Assembly (NCBI RefSeq): GCF_052425735.1
Contig: NC_135763.1
Coordinates: forward strand, 17,438,298-17,502,297
Source of the DNA: Oculina patagonica
Lineage: Eukaryota
Length of the DNA: 64,000 nucleotides
Direction of reading: 5' to 3'
Shown: positions 28,187 through 58,371 of the stretch, piece by piece
How positions within the stretch are numbered: the first letter of the stretch is position 1
Layout: every line of letters begins with the position of its first letter
Notes under the pieces: model-generated
The model's database searches: none
What the model saw: only the letters and a program-made list of their open reading frames with translations
What the model was told of the DNA's origin: nothing
Position numbers and translations under genes: made by a program

Positions 28187-28653
28187 GTAAATAATCGTAT
28201 TTACATAATTAAGGACCTCATATTATTACGTATAGAAGTTAATTCGGACAATAATTCTTTAACTAATGTCAGATAGGTTCCAGTGCAGTTTCGCAAAAAA
28301 AAGAAAAATTGGAAAATTTTGTATTTTTAACCCAACACCCTGTTCACCTCTTGAAACTATGAGTGGATGTCATCTTCAGGGGTTCTCTATCTTTACCCGG
28401 ATGATCTTGCCAAACAGTGCAACCAAGTTTGAAAATTGTAAAAATAAAAACAAAGAATGAAAACGATTAAAATTTTGTACGTGGTTAAAATAACCGAACT
28501 CCCCCTCATTGCTTCACTGTAGTAATTTTCAAGACGGTAAACTTTAGTAAAGAATTTACGCACAAAATGGTTTTTGCTTTGTTCTTCAAGTCAGGTGTGT
28601 GGTGCTTGTAACTAATAGTATTTCGAGTCAGGTGTTTTCGGTTGTCAATCCTG

Positions 28654-28654
<1 letters not shown>

Positions 28655-28706
<52 letters not shown>

Positions 28707-28725
28707 GTCAACCAATCAACCAAAC

Positions 28726-28813
<88 letters not shown>

Positions 28814-28889
28814 CAATCAATCAATCAATCAATCAATCAACCATCAATCAGTCAATCAATCAATCAATCAATCAACCAATCAGTCAGTG

Positions 28890-28928
<39 letters not shown>

Positions 28929-28930
28929 GT
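28655..28930. repeat. (CAAT)n microsatellite with CAGT/CAAC variants, ~275 bp, intronic
   Basis: Read directly. It explains the spurious INQS-repeat ORFs at 28599 and 28642. Confidence 0.95.
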
Positions 28931-29019
28931 TTTAGGCTATGTTGCGTGAATTGTATATCTATAAGAACGTATCGATGCCACTATTTTTGCGATTACTTGA
29001 ATAATTTCCTCTACTGAAG

Positions 29020-30634: not shown

Positions 30635-31274
30635 GTAAGTTGCTTTAGTTTTACAGAGTTCCTTAGTCTTGCTTGGTGGTCATCCCTCATGCTCAAGCGA
30701 CGCACAAGTGTCAAGTGGACTTTTTTTTGAGAATCTGTTTGTTACTGATGAAGCTGCCTCTTACAAATGACGTGAACTTGAGCTTTAGGTGCACAGTTTG
30801 CCGTTTTTCATGACATCTCTACCAGAACTTGACCAACGTTACAAGATAAGCCTTAAATAGGTGGCAAAATTGAAGAAAATCATCAAATACTGTCACGTAT
30901 GTCCAGGATTGAACGCAGGTAATGTTTAATGAGTACTTCTTGTTTCTGCGCTTTTGACATTTCCATATTATTTCATATATGATATATTTTGTTTTTTGTG
31001 AACTTTTTTTATTAAGGATTTTTTTTTTTTGGGAAGCTTTTTTTAGCCTTAACCCGCAAAATATTAAAAATAGACTTTCTTTTGATGTTTGCCCAGTTCT
31101 CTCAAGCTAATACTTTCAAAAGAAATGTAGGGCGTTTAGTATTTTATTTGGCACCGAAAAGTTAAGCAATTAGTAACTTTTCTTTATATATAAAATAAGA
31201 CGCCATTAATATTAATGTTTATCAGTTTGAAGTCAACCTGACAGCTTTTCTCTCTTTGCTTTTGCACAACGCAG

Positions 31275-31305
31275 AAATATTTAAAGACTACCAGCAGCTC
31301 TTCAG
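31275..31305 (+). CDS. NWD-like exon 17 (31-nt microexon; splice choice uncertain)
   Basis: Acceptor ACGCAG at 31274, donor GTAAGA at 31306. This is needed for phase continuity into the next exon. An alternative upstream exon 31532-31694 in another frame cannot be excluded. Confidence 0.45.
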
Positions 31306-31694
31306 GTAAGAGAACATAAAAGTCACAGATACACTTCAAAAGTAGTTCTAAATTTGCAGTCAGCTCCCGTACATTTAAAGTGTTATACTGGTCTTGTCAT
31401 CAGGCAAAGAGTGAAAATAAACATGTCACTCAAATCAGTCAAATGGACAGATTTTATACCAAATTGAAGCAAAATGATATGTCCTGGTTTTGCTGTTGTT
31501 AATTTTCTGGTTGTTGTTGTTTAACATGTAGTTTGAAACGACCTTTTAAGCAAAGCAGTGTATTTTCTCGAGATCGAGCGCTCATTGTCTGGTCCCTTCG
31601 GCTCAAACTTGAAGCTCACATCAAGACCAGAAGTCTCAAGGGCTCTGAAACAAAACACGATGCACTAATTGAATGTTGTTCATCTGGCCCCAAG

Positions 31695-31855
31695 GTAACA
31701 AGATCACTCTATGGCGAGACCTGACAAAGCTGGAATCTCGAAAGATTAACGTTGCATCATTTAAGCACCCGACAGCGGTGCGAAAATGCGTGTTTTCCAA
31801 AGGATGCAAATATCTTGCCACTTATGCTGCAGACGGGGTGTTACGTATTTTCATG
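31695..31855 (+). CDS. NWD-like exon 18, the first WD40 exon (…NKITLWRDL…VRKCVFSKGCKYLATYAADGVLRIFM)
   Basis: Pyrimidine-rich acceptor …CATCTGGCCCCAAG at 31694, donor GTAAGT at 31856. The sequence has typical WD40 repeat features. Confidence 0.55.
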
Positions 31856-32443
31856 GTAAGTGCTATGGATGACGTGAAAGCGTGTAACGTTTTTGCGACT
31901 GTTATGAGCTATGGATCTAACCAAAGGAACCAGTGAATCTCCAAACCTGGAGGCTAGCGAACGCCCACACGGTAGCTCCTGCTTTAGTATCGTGTAAAAA
32001 ATATTAAAAACCATTCACACCACCAACAGATAACTGAAAGACTGAATTTTATACAGGGTTAAAGAAAGCTCGAACTTATTTTTTCATTTTCATTTGCTAA
32101 ATTCAAAGTCAGTTAGCAACTTCTATGAAGGAAACAATTTAAAAACGTGTTTAACAAAATCGATTTTGGACGTACTTTAGCTTTGGCGTGAACGGCGTAT
32201 TTATTTAATTCATCAAAATCAGTGTGTGTTGGTCACTGATGGTCTGAACATACCGAAAATTCTGTAGACACAAGTCAAAAGTCAAAACTTAAACTGCCTG
32301 CTAAAACCAATAGCTCAATGAAACCTATAACTAACAAACCTTTGTCATGTCTTGGCTTCACTAACAATAGGAGCCACTCACATAGCGGTGAAAATTTAAT
32401 TGTCAACAAAGACCAACTTTTTTGTTACAAATTTTGTCCCCCC

Positions 32444-32485
32444 CCCCCCCCCCCCAAAAAAAAAAAAAAAAAAAAAAAAACTAAG
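32444..32485. repeat. poly-C(17) followed by poly-A(~28)
   Basis: Read directly. Confidence 0.95.
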
Positions 32486-32677
32486 ACAAATGAAAAGCTT
32501 TTGGTTTCATTTACACCTCACTACAACTACCGAATCGGATTTTGCAGAAATGATAGTTCAAAAACTTTGAAATTGTCAAAAAATCTCTCATCCAGAACAT
32601 TATAATCCGGTGATGAAGAATGAGTGTTTTATGTATTTTAGGACAGTCACCAGACTCTCACGGCTGTGTTTCTTTAG

Positions 32678-32825
32678 GTGGCAAGTGGCTACACCGTCAT
32701 GACAAAACATTGTGACTGTCACGTGATATCGTTTCCTGCAAGCATCGACCAGTGTCATTGGGTCGCAGTCGCGGGCACAAAATCCATTGTCCGTTACGGC
32801 TTAGGCTCCGGTGGCAAACACGAAG
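32678..32825 (+). CDS. NWD-like exon 19 (WD40)
   Basis: Acceptor TCTTTAG at 32677, donor GTAGGC at 32826. Confidence 0.65.
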
Positions 32826-33327
32826 GTAGGCTATTGGTGGTGAACTGATAAGACACTTCCAGTGTGCTTACACCAAGCTTAAGTTTTGACTTAAATAATC
32901 CAGCTAGGTTTAGGACTAAGGGTCTTCTTTATATCTTAAGAAGATTGTTTGACCAATTGGCTCATTAAGTTCATTATCGTTTAATATTTTAGTATTCACT
33001 CAGTAACTGTGATTACCTAGCTAACACAATGCTAACAAAATACCATTAATTTGCATCAAAATCACACAAGTAGTTAAATGTAAACTGATCGGATTGAATC
33101 CGAACGATTCAGTTATATCATGATTAATTAATGACATTAATGTTATCGATGCTTTCCCAACTTTTGCCAGGCATGAAAATAACACATAGGTGGCAAACTA
33201 AACAACAAATACAGGCTTTTCAGACGGAAGTGTTTTGTACGCTATTAGCAGCAGACGTGAAGTGTGCATACAATCGTTGCCTTTTCTTTTACAAAATAGA
33301 GTTTATAATACACCTGCTTTTTGTTAG

Positions 33328-33413
33328 GTACTATCCTGCAAGAGATAAAAGTTGACTGCGACATAGATGACAGAGCAAGCCTCGCTATCACCAAGAAAGG
33401 AAAAGTTTGGGAG
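33328..33413 (+). CDS. NWD-like exon 20
   Basis: Acceptor TTGTTAG at 33327, donor GTAAGT at 33414. Phase 1 in, matching exon 19. Confidence 0.65.
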
Positions 33414-33662
33414 GTAAGTCAAATGGAGAAAAAGAGATGGCAATAATACATGTGCTGTTACGTTTATCAGAAATCGTTGAGTAATTTCCTGAAAAGTGGT
33501 AAACCGATGGAAAATCGAAGTTTGTATTGGTTACAAAAAACGACAACGTTCACGAATATTACAGCATTTTGTAAACTTTCAGCTGTAGCTTTTAGCGGTG
33601 CAATGTCGTAATGACTCTGATAGTTTTACACAAGGAATTGCTTACGTTTGTTTTCATTGCAG

Positions 33663-33752
33663 ATATTTCTAGCGACATCGCATGGCAAACTACGCTCGTA
33701 CAGTACTTCACCGTCCTCTCATGGACAGCCTGTCCTGAAAGAAGAGCTACCA
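33663..33752 (+). CDS. NWD-like exon 21
   Basis: Acceptor CATTGCAG at 33662, donor GTACGT at 33753. Confidence 0.6.
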
Positions 33753-34242
33753 GTACGTATATAAGGGACTTGAAATGGGTCGATCACGAACTCCTTAAGT
33801 GAAATCCTGATACCTTACCTTTAAGTTTGTAACTCTGGTGTGTGAACCGTCATGATCAAATGAAAGACAAACTCTAAACTTTGGCACTTTCATACGTAAG
33901 GTGATTGACGTTGTCAGTAATGGTGGGATAACCCATGGCCAAACGGCTTTAAGGCTCTGGTCCCAAAGCACCAGGCTTCAAGCCTCCCCAAAAATGGCCT
34001 GCACACACGGCAAAATAATATCAGGGCTCAAAGAAACAAAACAATAGGGCTCCAGTCTCCACATCGAGCGTTTTAGGCTTCGCCACTGTATGCACTGGCT
34101 GTCATTTGTGCCACTAGTATCGTGAGATATTTGTGATAAGTGACAACTGATTGATTAAAATCGCAAACTTGTTAAACTGCTTTTTAAGCATAAAAACTAG
34201 AAGTATAGTGAAACACTAATAATGTTTTCTCTTTATTTATAG

Positions 34243-34335
34243 AGAAGACCAAAAGTTCTTACTATCTCACCAAATGGGAATTCACTCGCTTTTGGATCAG
34301 ACAAGGTGTATTTATGGAGCCCTAAATCTCAAAAG
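34243..34335 (+). CDS. NWD-like exon 22 (…NGNSLAFGSDKVYLWSPKSQK, a canonical WD repeat)
   Basis: Acceptor TTATAG at 34242, donor GTAAAT at 34336. Confidence 0.75.
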
Positions 34336-34824
34336 GTAAATCAAAATACAGCCTTTTTAAAGTCGTACCGTTCTTGATGCTTGGATTTGTGGATGCATGT
34401 AAATTTAAAGGATTGATTTCATGGTAACACAAAACTGTTATGTGTTAGTTCGGAGCCTAAGCAACGTGCATGCAGTAGGCAAAAAAACGTGTTTTACCGT
34501 TTACACTTTGTTTTTAGGCTAAGAATGGCAAGTCTGAATACTGTACCGTAAAACATGTATTTACTCTTTGAATATTTCAACATTCCGAAGGTGGTATTGG
34601 TTCCTCCGTGTGGCAAGGTGCTTTGCACTCAATGCTTGGAATGGTGATTTGTGCAGTACGTGTATATATACTCTGTAGCTCAGCTCCAGTATTGTGAATA
34701 ACAATTTAAACAGTGTATTTAAGAATCTAGGCTCAACTAGTATGGGCTGTTTTAGAAGTCTATTTAGTTTCAACTAGTGCGAAACAGTCTTTTCAATAAA
34801 TGAATATTTTGTACCTTTCATTAG

Positions 34825-34957
34825 GATGTCAAAGTGTTCGAAACAGGCAAAAAGACGAATCCACAAATGGACAGAGCTACCTTGCGTTTCTCAAAAAATG
34901 GAGCGAAGCTTGGAGCAGTGCTATCAAATGGAACATACATTTGGAACACACAATCTG
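34825..34957 (+). CDS. NWD-like exon 23 (WD40)
   Basis: Acceptor CATTAG at 34824, donor GTTAGT at 34958. Confidence 0.7.
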
Positions 34958-35549
34958 GTTAGTCAGTATGTATGTCTAAGCACAAAAACTACATGTAATG
35001 AAAAGAATTTGCATGGGCTAACGGGTGAAATACAGTATATGGCACAAATTTATCATCAATCAAAATAACCTTAGAGTTAGTCATGCAGTTTAAGAGATGA
35101 GCTGAAGTACTTGATTTCCATCAAAAAATGACATTTTACGATAAGTCTTGAAGAGAACAATAAGAGAATACAAACGTGTAAAAACTACGTCAACACGAAG
35201 GTAACTTTCACACCCACGGACAATCTTTTTTTTTCGTATTCTTTGCGTATAAACAATTGCAATCCATTCGAGTCTCGAAACATGCAAAATAGACGATTTT
35301 AGCTGATTGTTTAAAAAGGAAATTAAGATCAAGTACAACTGTTGCTCTTTCTTTATTATTTAAACGACAATTAGGTGAAAAAAAGCGTAGCAAATTGGCA
35401 TGGCATGCATTACAGCACATAAAAATTGATCTGAAGAGTATGCTACATGTCATGATTTGACGCCAACCTTTTTTATTCTCTTGTTTTTCTTCCTGTTATC
35501 ATTTAAATCATTCTAGCTTATAATACTCAAAGCGCCATCTTTGTTGCAG

Positions 35550-35662
35550 CAAAGCTACTTAGAACACTTGCCCTAAATTGTTTGGGCGTGGAATTTGTGG
35601 TGTTTTCTCCAGAGTTTGACTACATTGCATCTCAAGAGCTGAAAGACAAAGAGCACCTTCAG
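35550..35662 (+). CDS. NWD-like exon 24
   Basis: Acceptor GTTGCAG at 35549, donor GTATAT at 35663. Confidence 0.7.
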
Positions 35663-36122
35663 GTATATTCATTCGCTTGTACTTTGCTGATCGTTCTTTT
35701 TGCCTTTTCCTCGTAGCATAAACAACTTGAGGGACAGGATTGAGTAGGATTAGTTTAATTTTATAACACCTCATATCCAAATAAGCAGCCATTAAAATAC
35801 ACCTTAGATGTCCCAAGGGCAGATGGGCCTTTTCACTAGATAAATCATTTTCCTCTGGATAAGTGGTAGCAAGACCAACTACACTATCAAGTGTATATTA
35901 GATTATTCCATTGTGGTTCTGCACTGTGAGAGTTCTTGCTCAAAAACAGGGAGGGAATACTTGTCAGTCTCGACCTCTCAGACAAGTGACGGGATCTTGA
36001 GTGTAGAAAGCACTGCCGACTAGACCACTGTCTCTTCCAAACTGTGTTTGACTTGTGTATCGAGTAGCATGTGGTTTGAGTAGCAGTAACTGCAAAGCAG
36101 ACTGCAACATTTTTTCTTAAAG

Positions 36123-36317
36123 GTGCTATGCATGGCTCCACCGTATGACAAAAGTCCAGAATGGGAAACACTGACTGGCCATTCTGGTGAAGTTAGGGAC
36201 TGTTGTATTGGGAACAGAGAAAGCGGCCATCCCTTGATTGCCAGTGCATCAGATGACAACACAGTTCAACTGTGGGATACCAGGAACATGCCTTCCCCAA
36301 AAGTCGTAAAACTTCCG
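36123..36317 (+). CDS. NWD-like exon 25 (…TLTGHSGEVRDCCIGN…LIASASDDNTVQLWDTRN…, WD40)
   Basis: Acceptor CTTAAAG at 36122, donor GTAAGT at 36318. The GH…SDDxTVxLWD motif is the hallmark WD repeat. Confidence 0.85.
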
Positions 36318-36474
36318 GTAAGTTGTTATAGTAAGGACCTCCGTTCAGAATTTCAGTTTCCATCAATTCCACAACTAAACTAAGTTCCTTAGTCTCTTTA
36401 GCGTGCTTGATATTAACCTATCGATGTCCCGTATGCCTAAACGCTCGCTCTTTACCTATTAATTTCTGTTTTAG

Positions 36475-36619
36475 AATCACAACCATTCTGTTCAAGAGTG
36501 TACGTTTTCAAGCGATGACAGATTAGCAGTAAGCTGCTCTGCAACTGAGACATGGGTGTGGCAAGCTCAACAGCCAGTCCATAGGCTTCACCGGTTGCAC
36601 CCAGCTTCTGGTACTGGTG
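36475..36619 (+). CDS. NWD-like exon 26
   Basis: Acceptor TGTTTTAG at 36474, donor GTAAGA at 36620. Confidence 0.7.
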
Positions 36620-36740
36620 GTAAGACATCCAAGCCTGTTTTAATCCTGTAATGCTTGTTGTGTCGTAAAGAGACTAGAAGCAGCTGTCTAATTTAAGTTT
36701 ATTGGTATTGAGAAATGTGTAGAAGTTGAAAGCAGAACTG

Positions 36741-36818
36741 AATCTCCGACGGGAATTAGGCCCATGGCCTTCTGAAAACGGCGGTCGGACGCTCTAACCA
36801 CTGAGCTACATTGAGGCT
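36741..36818 (-). pseudogene. tRNA-derived SINE-like sequence (A-box TAGCTCAGTGG, degenerate B-box) in an NWD intron
   Basis: Reverse complement: GCCTCAATGTAGCTCAGTGGTTAGAGCGTCCGACCGCCGTTTTCAGAAGGCCATGGGCCTAATTCCCGTCGGAG. No canonical anticodon or T arms can be folded. Confidence 0.35.
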
Positions 36819-37132
36819 CGTGGTGGGTTAGGACATTTTTACTGGATTATTATTTGACATGAACCTCGGATACCACTAACATCAACAATGTCGAAAGTAA
36901 ACTCGGTGAATGAAAATAAAAAAGACAATTTCTGTTTTCATGAATTAACTGCACTGTTCATACTGTTCTAAAAGTGAAGAGTTTGCCAGCAATGTTGTTA
37001 CGCTGATACAGTTTTGTTCAGTTAAACATATTTGCATTGAATCATAGACACAGCATACACTGGACTCTCAAGAAATGTTAGCATCCTCTTGAATGTTACG
37101 TTTTTAATCTGTTTCAAAAAATTTCTTTGTAG

Positions 37133-37271
37133 CAAGTGGTACCTGTCCTTGTTTCTCTGAAGACAGCGAGTTTGTATCAGTGTTTGTGGAGACAGGAGTT
37201 GACGTGTGGCACCTCAAGTCAGGACTTGATCCTCATGGATCAGACAGGAGCCTACTCATGGGAGCACATAG
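37133..37271 (+). CDS. NWD-like exon 27
   Basis: Acceptor TTTGTAG at 37132, donor GTAAGA at 37272. Confidence 0.7.
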
Positions 37272-37522
37272 GTAAGATTTAGGAATGACCTTCGTTTGAT
37301 TATTTTTGTTACCCTTTTTTATATCACGCATGTGATTTATTTGACTTATTAATACTCTCTGACTGCCTGACTGTCTGACTGACGCGGGACCAAGCGACCA
37401 AGCGACCGAGCGACTGAGCGACCGACTGACTTATCGACCGGCTGACTTAACGACCGAATTTAAAATTGATCAAGTGATTGATGAATTTATGTTTGATCGA
37501 TTGATTTGTCATTGCAAAACAG

Positions 37523-37751
37523 AACTCTCACCTTACTTACTGTCCGTCACCTCTTCACCAAGTTTACATCTGATGGCCTGTACTGCTGCTTACACACCGA
37601 AAGTGAACCTAATACAGTCCGACTGTACCTTGCTGTCAACAAATACTCTCTAGAAAGATGGGCACATTATGCGCTCAAAGACCCGCCTCCAAGTGACTTA
37701 AATGATCAGGAACCCTTTGAGCAAAGATTTTCAGTTGACGAGGGGAATAAG
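37523..37751 (+). CDS. NWD-like exon 28
   Basis: Acceptor AAACAG at 37522, donor GTAATA at 37752. It matches ORF 37506 in frame. Confidence 0.7.
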
Positions 37752-37914
37752 GTAATAGAGATTCTTAACCAATTTACTGGTAAAGACATATGCAAACATT
37801 CATTAAATTCACGTTGACAATGAGACCATACAACAGGGAAGAAAAACAATTTTGCTGGACAAGTATTTGTCAAGTATTTTTGCCTGACGATGTTTCTTTA
37901 TCATAACGAAAAAA

Positions 37915-38522
37915 GAGGGTCCCTTAGAGGTGGCTGGTAACGGTTTCCAGCACTTTCCAGCTCTTATATTTGACGGGTCAGTACTACAAATCTTAACCAG
38001 TTGATGCTACAATAATGGTATAAAATTAATGCCCAATGATTGTAAATATTTGTGATTATTTTCATGACGTCATTGTCTATAGCAAGTATACCGTAAACAC
38101 CCTAATTGGAATGCTTATACTCAAAAACGAGCTCGATGACCCCATTTTATTATTGAACATTGACAGCATGAAGATACAATTTGCAAAGTTAAAAAAATTT
38201 ACGAACCGTTTCAGAGCCACCTTAAATTTTCAATTTTTTAAGGTGGCCGAAACTTCGTAGAATTTTTTAACTGCAAAAATTCTTACATGCTAATCAATTT
38301 CAATAATAAAAAATGGGGTATCGAGCTTTTGAGTTATAACATAAACGAAATTAGGTTTAGTATGTTGCTATAGTAACCAGTGACGTCATGAAAATAATCA
38401 CAACATATTCACCAATATTGGGATAATATACATATGTAGCAAATGATAAAGATTTGTATTACTGACCCGTCAAAGTAAGAGTGGAAAGTGCTGGAAACCG
38501 TTACCAGCCACCTTAAGTAGGC
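37915..38522. mobile_element. foldback element: ~240-300-bp inverted arms forming a 600-bp hairpin with a central mini-palindrome CCACCTTAAATTTTCAATTTTTTAAGGTGG
   Basis: 37915-37985 (GAGGGTCCCTTAGAGGTGGCTGGTAACGGTTTCCAGCACTTTCCAGCTC…GACGGGTCAGT) is the reverse complement of 38458-38522. GTGATTATTTTCATGACGTCATTG at 38050-38075 is the reverse complement of 38375-38400. The right arm is contiguous with TIR copy 1 of the large element. Confidence 0.8.
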
Positions 38523-39135
38523 TTTCTCCAAAAATCGACTAATATCGCCTTTCGGCGGCACAAATTGAAAAAATAGATTTCGCTCGTATTTTGCCCATAG
38601 ATAGGCCCTAGTGAGAAACTAAACGGACTGCAGTTAGTTTTTCCTAATACAGCTTCCTTTCGTAGAAATATGCAAAAAAAGATTTTGCCCCAAATTGGGC
38701 GCAAAATCAACTTCCGGTTTGACTGATTTTATTGAAAGTTTGATCGTCTCGTGCGTTATACTGCAGCTGTTTATTGATATTTCAATAATATTTATAATGT
38801 CTTTAGGTATTTAGTGTATGACTGAGCGAAAAATAAAACAAATCGAGATTTATTTTTAGCCTGAAACGGGGATAAATCCAAAGGCAAAATTTGCAAATGA
38901 GTAGCAAGCGAAATTATGCAGTAAAACTCTGCCATTTTTTTCTATGTGCGATAACCTAAAATATCGTAAAAACAATTTTTATGGGTTAACTAGACATTTA
39001 TCTAATAAGATACTCAAAAAAATCTCTGGGGAAAAGGTTTTTAGTGGCCCACTTTGGCCTTTGTTTATCACTAGTTTTGCCGTAAATCAGAAAAAATGTA
39101 AACAATTGCGTGACACTGCTTGTCACAATACCCGC
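38460..39135. repeat. long inverted-repeat copy 1 (~650 bp), the left terminus of the composite element
   Basis: About 85% identical to the reverse complement of 46041-46712. For example, TTTGCCCATAGATAGGCCCTAGTGAGAAACTAAACGGACTGCAGTTAGTTTTTCCTAATAC matches GTATTAGGAAAAACTAACTACGGTCCGTTTAGTTTCTCACCAGGACCTATCTATGGGCAAAAT, and GGTTTTTAGTGGCCCACTTTGGCC matches GGCCCGCTTTGGTCTG…. Confidence 0.8.
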
Positions 39136-40124
39136 TGACAGTTTCACAATTTCCTGTATTTTAAATAATCTAATCATTTTAAAATACACGAAAAGGATAG
39201 ATGCCAAATGCCAAATGTAAATGGAAAAGAAACTTTTACTTGTTTTATATCAATATCGCGAGTGGCTGTGCTGTTAAGTGTTCTTCAGCTGAAATTCAGA
39301 ACCAGGCAAATGTACGTGCTTTGTCTACTTTTCATTAAAGTAATTCAGAAGAATTCAAAAGGGCTTAGTTAAGATTTTTTCCTTCCTATTGCACCACTCA
39401 TGACAGAGTTTGTGACCAGGGCGTTCTGCTACAAGAGAAATGATAATTTTTGTCGCTCCTTTTATACTTCATTTAATAATCCTCAAAAACACTTAATACA
39501 AATGGCAGATTTAATAGCGTAACTAACCAACTTACAATGGTTTCTCACACTTCAATTTGTTACCATTTTTTATGGTGAAATTAACTGTCACTTACAAGGA
39601 TATGAAATTATTATAAAAGGATCTGCTAGCAGTTCAAATCTTTTGGCTAGATAGAGAATTCACAGCATTTAGCTTTGGCACGGAATCAACTATGAAAGGT
39701 AACATGGAATAGCACACAATATTCCGGGAATATTGGAAACAAAGTATGCCTTTCTAGGCATACATTTATAGATGTCCCTTCTTTCACTCCTTTCGTTCAT
39801 GCATGATCATTGTAGGGATATTTTTAGATCTAGTAATATTTCTGTTCTAGTATAGACCACTGAAAATTGCCAAGTATTTTCAACTCTACTTTCACCTAAA
39901 ATCAGTGCCAACTAGACTCAAATGCTTACCTCCCATCCTGCTGTCCACATAAAGCGGTTTCAGTTCCATAAGGAAATCAACATTGTTTTAAAATTTACAA
40001 ATTCGTAGGTGGGATTATTGCAACGAGCCTGTGGCATATCAGTGGCCGGGAAGGACGGGGGGTGTTTTAAAGGGCTTACAGAGCGGAGTTTTAAAATATT
40101 GCGAAAACCTACGTGTATGTAAAG

Positions 40125-40215
40125 CACGAACTTTGCTGGTTTTCACTTGAAGCAGGTACCAGACTTCATTACCCCTTGAAGCTTATCGATGTAAGGTTTC
40201 TTTTGGGTCAAGTTA
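40125..40215 (-). repeat. duplicated fragment of the 3' end of the transposase-like ORF (encodes TQKKPYIDKLQGVMKSGTCFK*), ~650 bp downstream of the real stop
   Basis: 40130-40215 is ~80% identical to 40795-40870, in the same orientation. Confidence 0.75.
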
Positions 40216-40789
40216 TCATGATCATAACATGGGAAGCACCAATATCGCTAGATATTGCCAATTAGTATTTCATATTAAAAACACATTATATTTGTAGACA
40301 TGTTACCTCGCTGTTGATAAAGCGGAGAAAAATAGCTTTTTTAGCAGTACCTACTAGACTCCACATACCATCCCTCTTATAGGAAGGGAAAGGCCCACCT
40401 TCTTCACCGCTTCTTTGGCGTCCCCTTTGTTCCCCTTTTGCTGTCTACACATAGCGTTTTCTGTCGCATTTGGGTGATATTTCATTGTGAAAGCCCCCCC
40501 CCCCCCCCTAACGCTCTAAGCCTGTTTTAAGCAGGGCTTAGCTTGAAAGTTTGCACTTTTTAAACAAGGCTGGAGCCGGGTGGGGTCAAGGCAACCAGAT
40601 TGTGGAAGATAAAATATCTGAAAGGAGTATGGAGCAGGGTGCTAATAGTTTTAACTATTTTAAAAATACCGAGAAAGCTTCTACTTAATACTTAATACTG
40701 TTACAAAATGATCTTCTTTAAATGATGAGATAACGCATTTGTCAATACTTTAACATTGGACGGAGAAAATGCGGCTTCTTTGTAGGCTT

Positions 40790-43534
40790 TCACTTGTAGC
40801 AGGTACAAGATTTCACCACCTCTTGAAGCTTATCGATGTAAGGCTTCTTGCGGGTTATCGTGACATTTGAAACATCAATGCCTAGAAAGATGCAGATGTC
40901 GCGCAAAACGGTAACACGAAAAGTAGCTGCAAGTTTGCCACTGGAGGCAAGCTCGCAGATGTTATAAGTGTCATGCATAATGGGATGCTGAAGAGCTACT
41001 AAATTGGACACATCTCTGCGCATCTCACTTAACGCTTCTTCATGGCGCGCACAGATCTCTTCTTCCTCGTCTTCCTCGGTCACAACATCAACATTTCGTT
41101 TGGCAGCCAGTCTGGAAAAAAAGCCCCGGATTTGCTGCGTTGTCAGGAATTCGCTGAATGTGAACAGACGATTGCCATTGGAATCTTTGGCAGTCCTCAT
41201 TTCTTTGGACACAGTGGCCGGGTCAAGCTTTCTTCCTGTTTTTTGCCCTATCTCAAATTTCTTTATGAGGTAATCTTTTTGATTGGAATTGAATCTTTTC
41301 CCAACAAAGGAACTCTTGAGCGCCCAGCCCATGGACATAGGAGGATTCTGAACATCACAACTGCTATCTTTTCCGAGGCACGCCACGTCGCCTAGTTCCT
41401 CGACTTTGGATCCACCCTTTTCAAGCTCATAGGCATACCTTAGCATTGCTCTGTCCAGAAGTGTCTCCTGTTCCAAAGCACGTTTGTGCTTTCCACATTG
41501 AAGGTGTTGCTCAAGACTGGAGTACCTTTGATATGTCATGATGCAACCTTCTTCAGGACAAGAAAACAATCCAGAATTGGCGTTTCCCTCGTCGCTGGCA
41601 CTTCCGTCATCATCGCCGTCAGACGAGGTAACTTCTGCAGGGCATTTAACCTTCCGAGGTTTCAAATCGACAAATGGCAAATGAGTGCTCCTTTCACGAT
41701 CAGTTCCGATATCGACAATCAAGTGACGTTCGCCATCGCTATCAGTCACCTGGAATTTGCTCCAAGGAATTAATTTTCCCGGGCCAATTCCGTATGCCCT
41801 TCACACCCTCAAACAATCGCTTTCATACTGGATGTTGTTAACAAAACTAACACCTTCCCATCTGACGGCTTTCTGCGTTTGCAACTGAGGCGTTTCTACC
41901 TCAATGTCATTGCCTTCATTGAGGTAGATTTGCATGTGGGATTTAATGGTCGCCGCTTTTCGGTCACATGCTCCCTTGCCACCTTGTGGATCCGAAAAAT
42001 CCATTCTCTTCAAGGTAACACCGGCTTTATCTGCTACCACTTTAGCACCAACAATGGTCGAAACACAGTGATAGCACCCCGCGTTGTCCTGTCTGTAGAA
42101 TACTGATTCAAGGTTTGGCATACCAATCTTTAACTTTGTGAGAACATCCGCCATTATGTCAAGCACTGAGTGACTGTCCTGGTTGCAAGCTTGAAAAATG
42201 TGCACGAATGCCATCGTCTCGATTTGTCGGTTTGGTCGCTGCCTTAGTGCCACTGTGATGTGCCAAGGTATCCCTCGCTTGGCAAACCAGTCGCTTTGAC
42301 TTTCTCTATACTTTCTGGGAAGGAACTTCATGGCCCAATCTTGGACCAAGAAAACAGAATTTTCCTCTAACATTTCCATTACATCGACTCTGGCCTCATC
42401 TTGGTTAACTGCACGAAGAAGGTGAGCTTTCCAGGCACTGATGCTACGCCTTGCTTGTTCAGTGTTAAAGGTCAACTCGTCCATTTCTTCGCTTTCTGTT
42501 GCAATTAGCTTAAGGGCGTCTTCTATTTCTCCAATGCTCACCTCCACCAGGCTGCAACGATCACACACCCCATCATGGATATGACTACATTCTCCCTGGT
42601 ATTCGGAGCATTTGGCATCACTGAGCGCAAAACATCTACAATGGTCTGGGACAGTCGACGACTCAGAAACATGTACCTTAAAAAATCAAAGAGGATCGTA
42701 TGAGAAATTACGCTTTAAAAACAAGCACGTGTTAGTCTCAAAGCTGTTACCATGTTTCAAGGGTTATTTGTTGTCCTTACCGTGAAGTCACTTTTCAGGT
42801 AACGCTTGGCCAATTTCAGTTGCTCCTTTCTTTGTTTCGCCCAGGACATACCCATTCCAAGCTCTCCCAGTCGCTCAGCCACAATTTCAAGTTCCTCAAA
42901 CGCTTTCGCGCCAGAAGCAGTGATGTAGTCCAGACCTTGTAAGGATTTCCTCACGGAGGCAGAACAGACGTCAAGAATTCGAAGCAAAGAGCTTCGGCTC
43001 AAGCAGGTTATGCCTGACTCCTTGCAGTACTCTTGATATTCTGTGCTATACGTTCTGGAATCATCACGTCCTGATAACATTGGGTACTGCGATCACTTCA
43101 CCGGAACTCAAAGTAAGGTTTTTCTGTCCAAATGGTAAATCTTGAATGATGTGCTGACTGGTTATGAAACAAATGAAGTGGTCAACCATTTCCGGGGAAA
43201 CGTACATTCTCTTCTGGATAGGTTTAGGAACAGGAGAGCCTCTACCATGGATCAGCAGGTGCTGTCTGGCAGAATCGATACTGTGCGAGGTTTGAATCCA
43301 CCCAACCAGATAGACATTGCGACTGTATCCCACTGGGTAGCATTTGTAGCATTCGCTAAGACAGTAAAAAGATGACTTTTTTGTTTCTGAGGATGTTGAG
43401 GGAAAATGCTGATTTATTGCCTTTGAAGAGACCAGTTTGTCCCACAATTTATCAGAATCTTCGCCAGCTATAACTTCCAATGAGGCGGCTACAGCCTCAC
43501 TCGCCTTCTTTACATAGTAACGTTTGTTCTTTCG
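40790..43534 (-). pseudogene. putative DDE/D transposase-like gene (unknown superfamily). At least 2 exons are joined by a GTAAGG…TTTTTTAAG intron (42677-42780), and the frame is interrupted by an in-frame TGA (41798-41800) and a frameshift near 43064-43080
   Basis: Blocks on the complement strand: 43534-43064 (KK/R-rich NLS-like start RRRKNKRYYVKK…); 43080-42781 (…KSLQGLDYITASGAKAFEEL…AKRYLKSDFT|GTAAGG); 42676-41801 (VHVSESSTVPDHCRCFALSDAKCSEYQGECSHIHDGVCDRC…LVQDWAMKF…VFYRQDNAGCYHC…MDFSDPQGGKGACD…ESDCLRV*); 41797-40790 (…CPEEGCIMTYQRYSSLEQHLQCGKH… ending RKKPYIDKLQEVVKSCTCYK*). Confidence 0.5.
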
Positions 43535-43904
43535 CCGACGTCACCAGGGTGTCTAAAGAAGTCGAATAGGATTAGTCTCTGGCGCAAATTACAGATGACC
43601 TTCGACAGGAGTTTTTTGGCAGGTGCACAAGACGGAGAGGCATAGACCCGGGGTATCGGTTAAAAATGCTGACCTCGCCTCTGTAACTGGGGTACTCGTG
43701 AATGACTTTGTCTGTTACTGTACTGATTTCCTAAAAAACGCAATGGCAGATAATTTAAATAAATCCACTTTACTATTTTACGCCCCTAAGCGCAATGCCG
43801 CGTACAACTACATGAAGACCAATAAAAACCTATGAATCAACCGGAATGGCGGGGGATGAACCTCTTTATTCGAATGGCCAACGATTCGTCATTTGCGATA
43901 TATT

Positions 43905-43985
43905 GTCAGTGATCAATGTTCACTGGAGCCATCAGTCAATCAGTCAGATCCATCAGTCAATCAATCAATCAAGCAAGCAAACGAT
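43905..43985. repeat. (CAATCAGT/CAAT/CAAG)n microsatellite inside the element
   Basis: Read directly. Confidence 0.85.
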
Positions 43986-46040
43986 CAGTCAGTAGGTCAA
44001 ACATATCATCATTAATACGCTTCACCTGTCACTGCCATCAAGTGTTGCTGGGGAAGTAAGTGAGAGGGAGAATAGACTAAGTGATGAAGTAAGTGATGAC
44101 CACTATAAAAAATTTAAATTTTACATTTCCCGTAGATTAACTCTCGTTTTACTGGACACGCTCGGGGCGTCGTTCAGTGCTCAGTATTTCCGTATATCAG
44201 TGTCCGCAATAGCGGGGTGTCCGTAAGGCGAGGGTTGACTGTAGATCATAACAAGGGGGCGAATTAAAAACAAATCTTTCATGTAAACAGGCTCTTAACA
44301 TGCTCTAATCTTAATCGTGAATTTTTTTTTTTTTTGTTTACACCATTACTCCTTTAATTTAAACTTTTAAGGATAAGGAAGCCCTAGGTTTTTTGGGTCT
44401 TGATTGTGTCCCCCATCCGATCATCCCCGTCACTCGAAATCCCAAATATCCCCTCCCCCCACCCCCAAGAGGTGGTCATGCCTTTATATATATTTTCTCA
44501 TTTTGTCCGAAATAAATAAATTTTCACTTGCTTAAAACGGCATGGATTTCTTTTAAGTAAAGGCTTATCATTGTCACATTTTTCTTACCCTGAATGTCAA
44601 CTCTTTCATTTGACTCACAACTTCTTCTTCCTTGTTATTATGTCGACAAGTGGAGGCGAGTTCTTTGCTGCTAATTTTGACAACAGTTCTCTTTTTGGAC
44701 GCTGAACTCAAAATTTCCCTGCATGATCTGCACATACCTTATGCAAACAGAAGGAAAACTATCAGACGTTTTTGAAATGCCTGTATAAGACAAGAAGCGA
44801 TAACCCGAGTGAGAAGTCGATATCTACCTGATCCAACGGGAACCAAATGTCCCGTTCTTATAGAATTAACTTCGAGAAGTCTTTTTACCCCTCTTTCGGC
44901 TTTTGGATATTTTCCTCTCACCATTTTATTAGAATTATCTTGAGGACCCTACATCTTTCGGTTCCTCTTGTCCAGCCGAGACCAAGGGAGAGCGAGTGAT
45001 GGGCAAACAGTCATCACCGAATTTTGTGGAGTGTTAAACATCGCCGCACGAGCAAGTATTAACTCAATTTCACTTTCCACAAGGAATAAAAGAGTTGTGC
45101 TACATTTTTAGTGCACGATAAAAGTGGGACGATCTCCGTAGACTGCTTTCTGTCTCTGCGATCAAAGGAGCACTGACCACCAACTAATGACTTAAAAGAA
45201 CAACAAGCATTCATCTTGTTCGAAGAGTCGTGTTTACTGAAGTGAGGAATTTCGGATAAGGACGTGTTTTCAAACTTAGATAATTTAATTTAACAATTTC
45301 TTATCGCAAGTAAAATCGATTTAGGACTGATCCAAATATTGCGTTGAATTCTGGCGCTAATCATATTCGAAGTTTCAGTTCATTGAAATGTACTATTCGG
45401 GCTAAAAAACGTAGAACTCTGAATATAACTTAAAAAACTATAAGGCAATTGTATTTTTCTGTTAGATCTTATACCATAAAGGTGTTTATAGTCCTCAGTA
45501 ATACCTTCAGTGTTGATACCTGTTAGTAAATAATTCTAACCAACATTTTTTTTGCTTTATATTTTGCTTCGCTTATAGGATAATAATTGGGAAAATATCG
45601 GCAATCTGATACAAAAAGAAACAACAACGCATTAACGAACAAAATCAACATCATTGCACTCCGGCGGCAAATACTTATAATTTAATTATTTGCTAGTTCC
45701 CTTCAGGGTCCTTCAGATCACGTAAAGAAATAAACCAAACAACATTGACTCATTGTTACGTTTTATAATTGAACTGAGAATGCTTTTTATTTATACGACC
45801 GGTTTTTGAAAATGATCGAGGGGTTAACAGCTTAAAACTACTAACACAGAATTTCGCTAGCTTAAACCTTACCGACGAGCCGTCTAGCATGTTGTGATAA
45901 AGAGCGTGTTAAGATCACGCAATTATTTCAAAACGGGTAAAGGGAAAATCTATTATTGCTTTTACCTTTTCAAAGAGTTTAGCACATGACCGTTTCTATA
46001 CTTGGGTTGTTTGAAAGTATTTGTTTCAAAAAGATAATTT

Positions 46041-46712
46041 CCCTCGCGCTTTACTAGCCTTGTCACGTAATTCCTGTCACGCTAAAACGGCAGATTTTCG
46101 GCGAAATTAGTAATAAGTACAGACCAAAGCGGGCCACTTAAAACCTTTTTCCCAGAGATTTTTAAGATATCCTATCAGATGGGTGTCTCTTTAACCCATA
46201 AAATGTATATTCACGTTATTTTAAGTTATCGCACATAGAAAAAAATGGCAAAGTTTTACTGCATAATTTCGCTCGCGACCCAATTGCAAATTTTGCCTAT
46301 CATTTTATCCCCATTTCAGGCTCAAAATTAATCTCGAATTGTTTTATTTTTCGCTCAGTCATACAATGAAGACCTAAAGAGAATATAAATACTATTGAAA
46401 GATCCATAAACAGCGGCAGTAAAATGCGCGAGGCGATCAAATTTTCAAAAAAATCAGTCAAACCGGAAGTGGATTTTGAGCCCAATTGGGGCGAAATCTT
46501 TTTTGACATATTTCTACGAAAGAAAAATGTATTAGGAAAAACTAACTACGGTCCGTTTAGTTTCTCACCAGGACCTATCTATGGGCAAAATATTAGCGAA
46601 AACGTGCATTCCATTTGTGCTGCTGTCTGGTTGATAATTCTAGGAAGTCGCACTTAATACCGTAAAATTTGAAAAATACTCCTACCCTCTCAAAAGTAAG
46701 CCCCAGACCTAA
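46041..46712. repeat. long inverted-repeat copy 2 (~650 bp), the right terminus, ending ~110 bp before the NWD terminal-exon acceptor
   Basis: See copy 1. Confidence 0.8.
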
Positions 46713-46820
46713 AGTATTTTAAAAGCCGCACAAATATCTCAGACGCAAAAGCTCTTTCAGCAATAACCTTCTGCTTAATCCAGTATTCAATCCGCGTTTT
46801 TTTTGTATCTCTGCCAACAG

Positions 46821-47420
46821 ATCACAGAGGCAGCTATATCAAGCACTTGCGGTAGACTTGTGGCAATAAGTGTACCAAGACAAAACAGCAGTCAGGAATG
46901 GATGAAGGGACCCGCCGACATACACATGTGGGATCTTAACAACCACACAGACTGGAAAGTCCAGTTGACTTTGCATTCCTCTATAAGTCGTCAGCTGAAA
47001 GTTGGTTGTGACTATCTGGCGACGTTTGTTCAATATCGTAAAAATGTTTCTGATGCTAAGAGAATTAAAAGCGGTATGCGAAGAAGGGGCTCAAACGTTG
47101 CTTACTCTGTTGTCGATGAAGCAGTCATCCAGCTCATTGATAAGCAGGGATCGACGCTTCAGACTTTTCAAATTCCTGGCAAGTTTTCTGGTGTGAGTGT
47201 GGTTAATAGTGAATCCACTTTGAGAAGCATTTCGGAAGGACTGTTGGTTTATAGTCTTCAGGAAGGCGTCGTGAAGCTACAGAACGTCAAATCTAACAAA
47301 GTGTTAGGAACCTTTACCGTAAACAACACGGAGATAACAGCTGTGAACATTGCATCAAATGGGAAATCTGCCGTTGTAGGCTGTGCAAATGGTAATGTGC
47401 ACATCATTCAGATGATTTGA
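46821..47420 (+). CDS. NWD-like terminal exon (…ADIHMWDLNNHTDW…TAVNIASNGKSAVVGCANGNVHIIQMI*, WD40)
   Basis: Acceptor CTGCCAACAG at 46820, phase 0, stop TGA at 47418-47420. A 9-kb intron containing the composite transposon precedes it. Confidence 0.75.
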   Translation: MTEAAISSTCGRLVAISVPRQNSSQEWMKGPADIHMWDLNNHTDWKVQLTLHSSISRQLKVGCDYLATFVQYRKNVSDAKRIKSGMRRRGSNVAYSVVDEAVIQLIDKQGSTLQTFQIPGKFSGVSVVNSESTLRSISEGLLVYSLQEGVVKLQNVKSNKVLGTFTVNNTEITAVNIASNGKSAVVGCANGNVHIIQMI

Positions 47421-47879
47421 AGTAGTGCTGGTTGGGAGTAATTTAAACGTCCTGTTGAACTATTTCATTCGACTACATTGTAACACACCAAGAGGGCAAC
47501 GCGTTGCGCATGCATGCACTTAATTATAGGTGTGGGCATTTCTCTAATTGAAGTGATTTCAGTGAGTTTTCTTGGACTTGACTTTCAATCAAAGTGACTA
47601 AAATGCGACGTATAAATTCGTTCTTAGACCATCGCGGAGTGCAGTAAGATTTAAGCAAATAATTTAACGTGACTATCAGTATATAAGATTTCAAAAGTGT
47701 TCGAAGTCTATTCATTTCTATTCTTTGTGAACTCTATAACCTAGACACATTTAATAAGTAAAGACCAGCAAAAATTCTCCCACTTCGCCAGAAGGAACGT
47801 TTTAAATGAAGTGTCTTATTTCGCGTTACGTAAGTTTTAGCAGAGAATTCATACATCTAAACTAACTTATCTGTATATT

Positions 47880-47965
47880 TAATTTATTTAACTACGTATA
47901 TTTTTAAATCGTTTATTTATTTATTTGTTTACTTGTGTATTATTTACTTATTTATTTATTTATTT
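47880..47965. repeat. (ATTT)n microsatellite
   Basis: Read directly. Confidence 0.9.
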
Positions 47966-49840
47966 ATTTATTGCGACAATCACAATGGTGTGGTGATGTT
48001 CTGCGTATTTGCGTGCTATTTTATATAGATTGAAGAATCGTTGCCCTGAGGTATGCGTTATTTTTTAAATTTTTTGGATTATGTATACGAACTGTTCTTA
48101 AAAGATCTAACTGAAGCTACAAACGGCTAACATGGTGTCTTTCTACCGATGTAAACTTGCGATCAGATCAATTCATTTTTTCGCGATCTTATATTTAAGT
48201 ATTACGAGGGTAAAGAGTAAATTTTAACACGGAAGGGAACTTAAAGGTTAAGCCCGTATTGCCAGTGCCCTTGTGTTGTGTTCTTTGCAAGCGCATTCCC
48301 TTGTTTCTCATTTATAAATTCAGTTGTAACTAATTTGTTTGTTTGTTTGTTTTTTTCTATTAACGTGAAGTTTCCGTTAAAAGTAAGTTCCCTTATAATT
48401 ATACAAGAGTATTTCTTGGTTTCCTTGAAAGAAATGGTAATGTACACTTTGTTTCAAAATCCCTAGGAGTACCTTGGTCTGGCCGCAAATCTTACTCTGC
48501 TTACAAACTTAAAGTATAAGGTTACTCATCCAGTGCTGACAACACCCAATTAAACAGAGACAAGATCATGTTCATATGTGACTTTTATTTTCATCAAATA
48601 GAAGCTGGTTTTCCTTGTAACAGCTAGAGTATGGAGTGCGTGAATCTTACACAAATAAAAGCACGCACTGACCGTATTATGAACGAAAAATTTGGAATAC
48701 CGTACGGTATGAAGAAATTTTTAGCTCGTAATACGTTCAGCAAGTGTATTTATTTGCGCACAAATGCACGAAACATAATATTCTAACCCTTACGTTTACT
48801 AAAATACTAAAAATCTTGCGTTGATTCATTTAACAGTCGCTAAATAAGGCAAATTGAAATAAATAGTCATGAAAAAAATGTTTTCTGGCGTTGTAAAAGA
48901 GTATTTTGTCATGGAAGTTAAAAGTAAATAAAAATATGCCACATGGCCGTTTTTTTTTTGTTTTTTTGTTTGTCTGTTTTTTTTTTTTCAAAGTTTTGCA
49001 GTACCTTGTAATATTGAATTAGACTATTCCTTGGTACTTTTATTGCCTTTTGTGTCATTTAGTTACCTTCCTTATCTTGAAAAAATTGTATCTTCAGCAC
49101 AGTGCATTATTTTGATATTTAATGACTCGTGGAAAACCAACTTTCATTTGTTTTAGAATATAGTTAAGTTTGTTCGTCAGTTCATTCGTAAATCCATATC
49201 AATGTGAGTTTTCTTTCAGTTAATTTCTTGTTATATCACTTCTAGTTCACTCAGTGTGTAGCTTGGCTTTCTCAGTTGTTGTATAATGTCAAAATGTGGG
49301 ATTGATCCTGTTGAGAAAGAAAAAATAAAATTTGAGCGATCTAGAAAAGATGGACTGAGAGGAAAAGGATGCGTGTTTCTTTCTTCATTTGTTTTACATT
49401 GCCTTGTAGGTTTAAGAGGTCCTTTTTTTCTTTAAGCTAAGATATTCTGTTTCAGCCATTTCAAATTTCAATTTTAAGGTATTGATATTGTTTCGCGATT
49501 GCAGTCTGCGATGGGAACTAAATAAATTTAATCGTTTGGAGTGAATAAGATGGGTAGGGATTAGATACTGGAAGTAAACAATGGGTAGGGGTTAATAATT
49601 CCAGCCGGCAGAACATAGAGTTATGGGGTGTTTGACCTTACCTTTTAAGCGTGTACTTTTGAATCCTGAGGCAAGAACGAAGAACAATGGTAGCCAGACA
49701 TTTGTATCTACAATGTCTACAATGACGAATTATTTGATAATTAGCACTTTGTCCCTTTATGCACAACAGTAAATTAACGTCTCTCGTCATGGAATCGTTA
49801 CAAGTGTCGTTATTTGTAATGCATAACATAATAAAGCACA

Positions 49841-51574: not shown

Positions 51575-51718
51575 TGGTAGCCAGACATTTGAATCTACAA
51601 TGACGAATTATTTGATAATTAGCACTTTGTCCCTTTATGCACAACAGTAAATTAACGTCTCTCGTCATGGAATCGTTACAAGTGTCGTTATTTGTAATGC
51701 ATAACATATTAAAGCACA

Positions 51719-51832
51719 TCACATTTTGTATTCAGGAATGCATGACAATTTAGTCCAGACAAAAAGGTGTACAATCTGTGAGATACCTGCCAAATATGCG
51801 TGGTCTTTGTAGGCTTATGCTTGCTTGGCGTA
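51719..51832 (-). CDS. unknown gene, copy B terminal exon (…IFGSISQIVHLFVWNKLSCIPEYKM*); the 3'UTR contains AATAAA
   Basis: Acceptor AAAATTAG, stop TGA at 51721-51719 (complement). The phase is consistent across all 5 exons. Confidence 0.45.
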
Positions 51833-51886
51833 CTAATTTTCGCAGGAATTATTTATAGTCTTTATACTGTGTGTTTCATATCTTAC

Positions 51887-51962
51887 CGTTTGAGATGTAA
51901 AAAGAAGTGTTTTTCAGTGACTGTAAGGCGTCAGAAGGTTTGCTGATTTCTTTACCTCTCTC
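51887..51962 (-). CDS. unknown gene, copy B exon 4
   Basis: Acceptor TTTTCATTTATTCAG, donor GTAAGA, 25 codons plus 1 nt. Confidence 0.45.
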
Positions 51963-52301
51963 CTGAATAAATGAAAATAAAAAATGTTCTTACTTTTATA
52001 CTTTTTGTACAGTTTCGTTATTCCTAATTTCATCATCTTGTTTTCTTTTCATCTAACACCATTTGGTTCTCAAATTATCCATCAGGGCACAATTTGCATG
52101 ACTAACATTAATTTTCGCTTTTTTCTTCTCAGGTTGTCTGGTTTACGTTCACTTTATTTGTTTTCTGCACGTCATTTACAATTTACGTTGAATGCGTTTG
52201 CCATGCATGTGCACTTCCAAGTTCCTTTTCCCCTCCTTCTCCCCCTCTCCCCGCTTCCATCAGTTTGTATTAATATCGTTAATTTATGATCATTAACTTA
52301 C

Positions 52302-52472
52302 ATGCTCAAAATATGCCACAACTTCGCTGTTAGCCCGGTCTTTTTCATGTGATGCTGTTATTCCACAGAAAAATGATTGCTTAGTTTTGTCAACGTGAAT
52401 GATGTCAAAATGGCAACGAGGGAAATCTGTGGCGTTTTCAGGCGTGTGCCATACATCGTTTGATTTTATCGT
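52302..52472 (-). CDS. unknown gene, copy B exon 3 (TIKSNDVWHTPENATDFPRCHFDIIHVDKTKQSFFCGITASHEKDRANSEVVAYFEH)
   Basis: Acceptor TTTTGCAG, donor GTAAGT, 57 codons. Confidence 0.6.
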
Positions 52473-52936: not shown

Positions 52937-53060
52937 CTGTTAAAAAGAGAAACAAATGTGTACGATGTTACTATTCGCAAAGCTCATCAGTAATGCTAAT
53001 GTAGCTGAACAAAATTTTGAGAGCATTTGCGAATCACTGATTTCAGTTATAATTCGTTAC

Positions 53061-58330: not shown

Positions 58331-58371
58331 GTATTTATTTCACTTACCATTACCATTACCATTACCATCGC

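Follow-up and report, generated by a model that had tools for sequence, protein, structure and literature searches.

A TTAA-flanked hairpin beside a large transposon in a coral gene intron is probably a separate, MITE-type inverted dimer

A long inverted repeat lies directly against the left end of a large transposon with long terminal inverted repeats (TIRs) in the stretch of Oculina patagonica DNA analysed here (64 kb, hereafter the window), and its position raises the question of whether it is a piece of that transposon or a mobile element in its own right. An earlier note, made from the letters alone, had offered both answers, namely that a Foldback/MITE had inserted separately at the end of the large element, or that a terminal duplication had been generated while that element transposed. 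We find that the hairpin is very probably an independent mobile element of the TTAA type, separate from the large element. The fuller reading, to which we assign a probability of roughly 0.6, is that it is a non-autonomous, TTAA-specific cut-and-paste composite of MITE type, with the four-step history set out below. The coordinates of the features are collected in Table 1.

Table 1 Coordinates of the host intron, the hairpin and the large neighbouring element in the window
Feature	Position	Strand	Remarks
Phase-0 intron of the host WD40/NWD-like gene	37752-46820	+	9,069 nt; ~300 nt in the related coral
Left target-site duplication copy	37924-37928	.	degenerate TTAGA (TTAA plus one base)
Hairpin unit A (left arm)	37929-38221	+	293 nt; starts GGTGGCTGGTAACGGTTTCC, ends ...CAGAGCCACC
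Central junction (hairpin loop)	38222-38241	.	TTAA 38222-38225; 12-nt spacer ATTTTCAATTTT 38226-38237; TTAA 38238-38241
Hairpin unit B (right arm, inverted relative to unit A)	38242-38512	-	271 nt; outer end ...GGAAACCGTTACCAGCCACC
Middle TTAA	38513-38516	.	common to the right end of the hairpin and the left end of the large element
Large long-TIR DNA transposon (separate element)	38517-46653	-	8,137 bp
Degraded transposase gene of the large element	40790-43480	-	ORFs in several frames; 23-aa deletion; C-terminal C2H2 finger
Right TTAA target-site duplication copy	46654-46657	.	homology to L009/L010 resumes at 46653

The interval first described as a foldback, 37915-38522, is indeed filled by an inverted repeat, and a local alignment of the region with its own reverse complement runs unbroken from 37923 to 38517, but the element proper is narrower, a 584-bp sequence (37929-38512) folding back on itself. 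In BLAST the hairpin matches itself over 640 columns with 76% identity (E = 6e-94), while in a global alignment of one arm with the other 73% of the 268 aligned bases agree and 9 gaps are opened. The identity is perfect only in the outer 31-32 nt (37928-37959 and 38482-38513 pair over 32 nt with 100% complementarity, followed in the repeat finder by a 35-nt pair at 89%), amounts to 91% across the outer 80 columns and falls to about 50-75% further inward. The predicted DNA fold has an energy of −183.9 kcal/mol, compared with −50.7 ± 4.5 kcal/mol for dinucleotide shuffles (z = −29.5), and the predicted RNA fold reaches −294 kcal/mol (z = −29.2). The hairpin as such is therefore borne out, whereas its description as near-perfect does not survive an arm identity of 73-76% and about nine indels. 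Going by these folding energies, formation of a cruciform or of dsRNA is thermodynamically plausible, and if transcribed the hairpin would yield a long imperfect intronic dsRNA, with a duplex of about 280 bp, which could be a substrate for ADAR or Dicer. The open reading frames inside it are at most 74 aa long, incidental and not conserved from arm to arm, and the 74-aa frame of unit A found no homologue in a protein database search. Matches to Rfam were rejected as sub-threshold hits to generic long-hairpin miRNA (39.5 bits against a cut-off of 211 bits).

In addition, each of the two arms is bounded on both of its sides by the same signature, TTAA/GGTGGC...GCCACC/TTAA. The left half of the hairpin reads TTA(G)A / GGTGGCTGG...unit A...GAGCCACC / TTAA / ATTTTCAATTTT and the right half reads TTAA / GGTGGCCG...unit B (inverted)...CCAGCCACC / TTAA, the terminus of the whole being TTAA/GGTGGCTGGTAACGG.... 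An exact TTAAGGTGGC is found three times in the 64 kb, at 38216-38225 (−), 38238-38247 (+) and 38507-38516 (−), all of them within the hairpin, when about 0.12 copies are expected by chance (128,000/4^10); the outer left end, TTAGAGGTGGC, is a fourth copy of the motif with a 1-nt insertion. Two of these copies make up the central mini-palindrome that had been noticed earlier, as GCCACCTTAA at 38216-38225 and TTAAGGTGGC at 38238-38247. At its inner end each unit repeats its outer end in inverted, degenerate form over about 17-20 nt (GGTGGCTCTGAAACGGTT versus GGTGGCTGGTAACGGTT). A likeness between the 12-bp spacer and the reverse complement of the right flank (ATTTTTCAAATTTT) was dismissed as a low-complexity coincidence.

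The history of the site can be read from a related coral, in which two loci, L009 and L010, align colinearly to window positions 31231-37861 and 46653-55910 and lack positions 37862-46652. The proteins of these two loci share 92% and 91% identity with the exon that follows the insertion, and a Desmophyllum pertusum protein shares 78%. The empty site of L009 reads ...TCCC-TAAA-TTCTGTACAATTT (in fuller form ...AAATAGGATCCC TAAA TTCTGTACAATTTCGAAAATACTCC), where the window has ...TCCC-TTAGA-[hairpin]-TTAA-[large element]-TTAA-TACCGTAAAATTT (in fuller form ...AAAAGAGGGTCCC TTAGA [hairpin] TTAA [large element] TTAA TACCGTAAAATTTGAAAAATACTCC). The TTAGA stands directly between the flank ...GGGTCCC, which aligns to ...GGATCCC of L009, and the hairpin terminus GGTGGC. 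Since the intron is empty in the related coral, both insertions are younger than the split of the two corals. The comparison also identifies TTAA as a true 4-bp target-site duplication: the hairpin is surrounded by TTAGA and TTAA where L009 and L010 have a single TAAA, its left copy being degenerate and its duplication being common to the adjacent element. Nothing in the empty site corresponds to the 12-bp spacer, which therefore arrived with the hairpin.

On the other side of the hairpin, the homology among copies of the large element ends exactly at TTAA/G in 7 of the 7 termini aligned, which come from four copies (the one in the window and L001, L002 and L011, three related copies in coral assemblies that were recovered via the protein database). 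From this boundary it follows that the large element begins at 38517 and that the TTAA at 38513-38516 is common to it and the hairpin. The earlier observation that the right arm runs directly into the first TIR copy is thus made exact, the hairpin ending at 38512, the TTAA following and the large element starting behind it; the two are "fused" only in the sense that they have this one TTAA in common. The empty site indicates that both elements sit in what was one ancestral tetranucleotide, now present in three copies. Two TTAA-duplicating elements hence occupy one ancestral target, with the middle TTAA common to both, and the locus offers a base-resolved example of two unrelated TTAA-duplicating elements using one target site.

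Both insertions, the hairpin and the large element, are contained in the same intron. Its donor (AAG/GT, 37751/37752) and acceptor (CAG/ATC, 46820/46821) are borne out by P0122, a homologue in a Logan assembly that is spliced at this point (...FSVDEGNK/ITEAAIS...). The window ORFs have WD40 repeat matches, and upstream, at 16435-16908, there is a borderline match to DUF4062 (23.8 bits versus a cut-off of 24.7). These two observations together make an NWD-like host gene plausible, so that of the earlier placement of the hairpin in an NWD intron, the intron stands, with its extent now given by the splice sites, while the NWD identity is plausible only. About 97% of the 9-kb intron of this coral gene, putatively an NWD-like gene of immune type, is recent transposon insertion.

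The comparison with the related coral also bears on two origins that involve no transposition of the hairpin, an inverted duplication of host intron DNA and an assembly artefact. Long palindromes can come from assembly or library artefacts. Here, however, the arms are diverged and carry many indels, the sequence is missing from the orthologous intron and its junctions with TTAA are precise to the base, and the hairpin terminus with its TTAA recurs in an independent metagenomic contig (L006, see below). We consider either origin extremely unlikely.

What remains close to the large element is the position of the hairpin, exactly at its end, as would be expected if the large element had duplicated or rearranged its terminus on transposing. 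In BLAST comparisons, however, the hairpin has no similarity to the large element or its relatives (window, L001, L002 and L011), and its ends resemble those of the large element no more than shuffled sequence does (p = 0.04-0.9, uncorrected, in 10 comparisons), so the weak similarity formerly noted between the end of the foldback arm and the outer part of the second TIR copy is at chance level beyond TTAA and the adjoining G. As the two share no sequence at all, and the 7/7 termini of the family stop at TTAA, a terminal duplication during transposition of the large element has next to nothing in its favour and we reject it. The BLAST comparison also shows that the arms are not ordinary copies of the 650-bp repeat, as the TIR had been called. 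No hairpin sequence adjoins the related copies L001, L002 and L011, and no hairpin-like structure was found beside the ends examined in L001 and L002. With its own termini (TTAA/GGTGGCTGGTAACGG), the hairpin-free copies of the large element and the terminus in L006, the first of the two answers proposed earlier, a separate Foldback/MITE insertion, is the one that holds.

A separate origin would still permit the two elements to have travelled together, the left end of the hairpin and the right end of the large element being used in one integration. The whole block does occupy a single ancestral site between one pair of repeats of TTAA type, and both elements duplicate TTAA and begin with G. However, the termini are not significantly similar, which makes it unlikely that one transposase recognises both elements; two insertions in succession would leave an intact TTAA between the elements just as well; and the pair is absent from the other loci examined (L001, L002 and L011). 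Such a joint transposition is, in our judgement, very unlikely. The order of two successive insertions is left undecided by divergence, as the outer parts of the hairpin arms (7 mismatches in 77 positions) do not differ significantly from the large TIRs (94 in 567).

We then considered how the hairpin acquired its structure. If divergence between the arms were uniform at 24-27%, the chance of 31-32 consecutive matches at the terminus would be about 1e-4. The combination of perfect ends and a diverged interior thus indicates that the arms were already diverged, and the termini constrained, when the hairpin last moved. Taken together, the perfect outer ends, the decayed inner ends, the diverged interiors and the spacer enclosed between two TTAAs are best explained by a composite. 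That the hairpin originated as a composite of two diverged units of about 270-290 bp in inverted orientation has, by our estimate, slightly better than an even chance, and we infer that it was mobilised in trans.

The proposed history has four steps. At a donor locus, two units would first have inserted in opposite orientation into TTAA sites separated by 12 bp. A transposase working in trans would then have acted on the two outer, perfectly conserved ends, so that the pair and the 12 bp trapped between them moved together. In a third step the composite would have integrated into the intron of the NWD-like gene. Finally, the unrelated 8.1-kb long-TIR transposon, which also duplicates TTAA, would have used the same site, the later arrival, be it the hairpin or the large element, entering a TTAA copy that flanked the earlier one. 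The outcome would be the arrangement TTA(G)A-[hairpin]-TTAA-[large element]-TTAA.

The main rival to the composite is a one-piece foldback element, which always had terminal inverted repeats of about 280 nt and a short loop, and in which the inner TTAAGGTGGC motifs would be internal transposase-binding repeats or a very old relic of dimerisation. Its arms do align over their full length, the dimer is the only form observed here, and cut-and-paste transposons commonly carry their terminal motifs internally as well. On the other hand, the inner motifs are flanked by TTAA on their loop side, just as the outer ends are, which a binding site does not need, and the perfection of the outer ends contrasts with a divergence of 24-27% between the arms. 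For these reasons we regard the one-piece foldback as unlikely.

An inverted dimer could also have been made from a single MITE by an accident of replication or repair, through replication of an unresolved hairpin intermediate or through template switching during gap repair. Units arranged head to head with a short loop would suit such an event, and piggyBac-type excision passes through TTAA hairpins at the transposon ends. The centre left by such an accident should be a perfect palindrome or just one TTAA, though, where we observe TTAA, 12 non-palindromic bp and TTAA, and the 24-27% difference between the arms, with 9 indels and identical termini, is a misfit to identical halves decaying in place. 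This origin therefore appears highly improbable, and the composite is retained as the preferred reading. The locus would accordingly be an example of a MITE dimer that apparently moved as a composite, together with trapped flanking DNA.

Relatives of the hairpin are scarce in the sequences searched. Neither a second hairpin nor a solo unit turned up when the 64-kb window and some 125 kb from related corals (L001, L002 and L009-L012) were searched with BLAST, and a 19-mer pattern scan found none in GTDB (prokaryotic) genomes or in IMG/VR (viral). A 20-mer scan of JGI metagenomes returned 6 matches, 1 of which is a real relative, L006; the other 5 were rejected as chance matches in bacterial contigs of 57-65% GC without TTAA, and they indicate that the pattern alone is not specific. 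L006 is a metagenomic contig of 1,275 bp and 37% GC with an otherwise unrelated element that ends GGAAACCGTTACCAGCCACC/TTAA, a match of 24 nt followed by TTAA, and it is a single observation. The same contig contains a separate hairpin at 1-189, with 75-nt arms that are 88% complementary, and a tRNA-like, SINE-like stretch at about 1100-1200. Its repeat content is consistent with a repeat-rich genome of cnidarian type.

The hairpin is short and non-coding, has terminal inverted repeats and shows a target-site duplication relative to the empty site, as is typical of a MITE; the assignment is nevertheless a putative one, multiple copies being a defining property of a MITE family and the external relative here being the one L006 terminus only. 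As to the superfamily, Kojima and Bao (2022, PMC9587614) describe TTAA duplications together with 5'-RR...YY-3' termini for Kolobok elements, in contrast to piggyBac. The hairpin has the TTAA duplication, and its termini, GGTGGC...GCCACC, follow the 5'-RR...YY-3' pattern, so by this terminus rule of thumb it would be Kolobok-like. In Repbase practice a non-autonomous Kolobok is matched to its autonomous element by the terminal ~11 nt (PMC4455052), and no autonomous Kolobok partner with the GGTGG terminus of the hairpin was found. In Xenopus, the T2-MITEs have TTAA followed by AGGRR (Hikosaka and Konishi 2018, PMC6004289). These Kolobok-type MITEs are similar to the hairpin in their TTAA, in GG...CC, in the non-coding unit of a few hundred bp and in being intronic. 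They differ from it in that the hairpin has TTAA/GGTGG and not TTAA/AGGRR, and is an inverted dimer, and the Xenopus Kolobok termini (PMC6004289), which start with AG, do not match those of the hairpin.

With MITEs derived from piggyBac the hairpin shares TTAA-specific integration. The ends of piggyBac are CCC...GGG. We rejected a piggyBac assignment on account of the GG/CC termini and of the absence of a match to the piggyBac transposase model PF13843 in the 13 window ORFs scanned, the termini of the hairpin falling on the Kolobok side of the RR/YY contrast between the two superfamilies (PMC9587614).

The Drosophila Foldback (FB) elements and foldback-type MITEs resemble the hairpin in their two long inverted arms, very short loop and strong predicted hairpin or cruciform. 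The target duplication of Drosophila FB is 9 bp. The hairpin, by comparison, duplicates TTAA, each of its arms has short inverted ends of its own, and the arms lack tandem sub-repeats (Tandem Repeats Finder reports only a 10-nt unit repeated 2.2 times at 37944-37965); in the absence of arms built from tandem sub-repeats, a Foldback of the Drosophila type was rejected. Composite transposons and the composite-like KolobokP (PMC9587614) resemble the hairpin in being associated with TTAA and in having neighbouring units side by side. KolobokP has long direct terminal repeats and a coding core, whereas the hairpin has two non-coding units inverted around 12 bp.

The large neighbour has TIRs of about 570 bp (38517-39088 and 46093-46653) that are 83% identical (K2P 0.19). 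Its transposase family counts 1,391 protein homologues, most of which are unnamed and some of which belong to the sea anemone Actinostola; a Cys/His-rich motif lies at the N-terminus and a C2H2 finger at the C-terminus. Three acidic residues of the transposase, D116, D201 and D242, are invariant or nearly so in 50 homologues, and together with an RNase-H/integrase-like fold they place it among the DDE/D enzymes. Pfam gave no match for it, which means that it is not a recognisable piggyBac, and a PDB sequence search with it matched the C2H2 finger only. Kolobok was rejected on a best HMM score of 5 bits and an hhalign probability of 0.2%, where positive controls score 197-311 bits; the model was made from 10 published cores containing DGxWxKRG, GDGDS, CxNH and NESxN (PMC9587614 supplement 3). 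Judged by its sequence, then, the large element, which duplicates TTAA, is neither Kolobok nor piggyBac. It may be Sola-like, in view of its DDD triad, RNase-H fold and 4-bp duplication, here TTAA. Sola elements reportedly have DDD transposases and 4-bp duplications and are abundant in cnidarians; a literature search gave no confirmation that any Sola group, Sola3 included, prefers TTAA. The large element may represent a widespread, TTAA-duplicating lineage of DDD transposases that has no Pfam model.

Two features inside the large element were also observed. A 9-bp indel, ATCGNCTTT (a duplicated ATCGAC-like motif), occurs in the outer TIR at one end of each of three copies (window 38540-38560, L002 3885-3900 and L011 at about 14200), independently of the orientation of the transposase gene, which suggests slippage or conversion between TIRs. 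The other is a 78-nt direct repeat (40131-40208 and 40778-40855; identity 85%, spacing 647 bp), which reaches into the 3' end of the transposase frame and may have arisen by partial duplication within the element.

For annotation, these results mean that one should mask the hairpin as a MITE dimer of TTAA type and not take it for a regulatory or structural feature. It has no demonstrated function, it is an ordinary small non-coding DNA transposon of known type, and nothing in the findings challenges the current understanding of transposons. The shared target allows one wider suggestion, that TTAA-specific transposases in Oculina patagonica may prefer the TTAA copies flanking resident TTAA elements, a target-duplication re-use which, if true, would build chains of unrelated elements. 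That all three proposals hold jointly, namely a mobilisable composite of two MITE units and 12 bp of captured host DNA, chaining by re-use of TTAA copies and a widespread DDD lineage behind the large element, seems doubtful to us.

Elsewhere in the window there is a second TTAA-bounded element, at 22405-24182, which begins TTAA/GGTCGCGGGGGA... and ends ...CCCCCGCGACC/TTAA. It has two left ends (22405 and 23133, 728 bp apart) and two right ends (24097 and 24182, 85 bp apart), and these duplicated ends point to partial tandem duplications. The hexamer with which it opens, GGTCGC, departs at one position from GGTGGC of the hairpin, and its presence implies that such elements are not rare here. 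A tandem duplication at 49637-53241, with a period of about 1.88 kb and copies that are 97-100% identical, lies in a region that aligns twice to L009/L010; it is very recent unless it is an artefact of the assembly. Positions 28615-28950 are taken up by a long (ATCA)n microsatellite. A 9-12-nt periodic repeat at 58264-58750 coincides with ORFs at 58121-58753 (+) and 58180-58710 (−) that have no Pfam match, and an isolated GC-rich block at 2001-4000 (50% compared with about 37% elsewhere) has overlapping ORFs of 178-238 aa on both strands, likewise with no match in Pfam. The window is dense in small DNA transposons. Six more MITE-like inverted-repeat pairs with unrelated termini are located at 5157-5894, 8640-9416, 17206-17710, 20540-20649, 60928-61115 and 62453-62551, and the pair at 8640, with CTAAGGGCCTGTTTACATGG, has a Harbinger/Tourist-like look.
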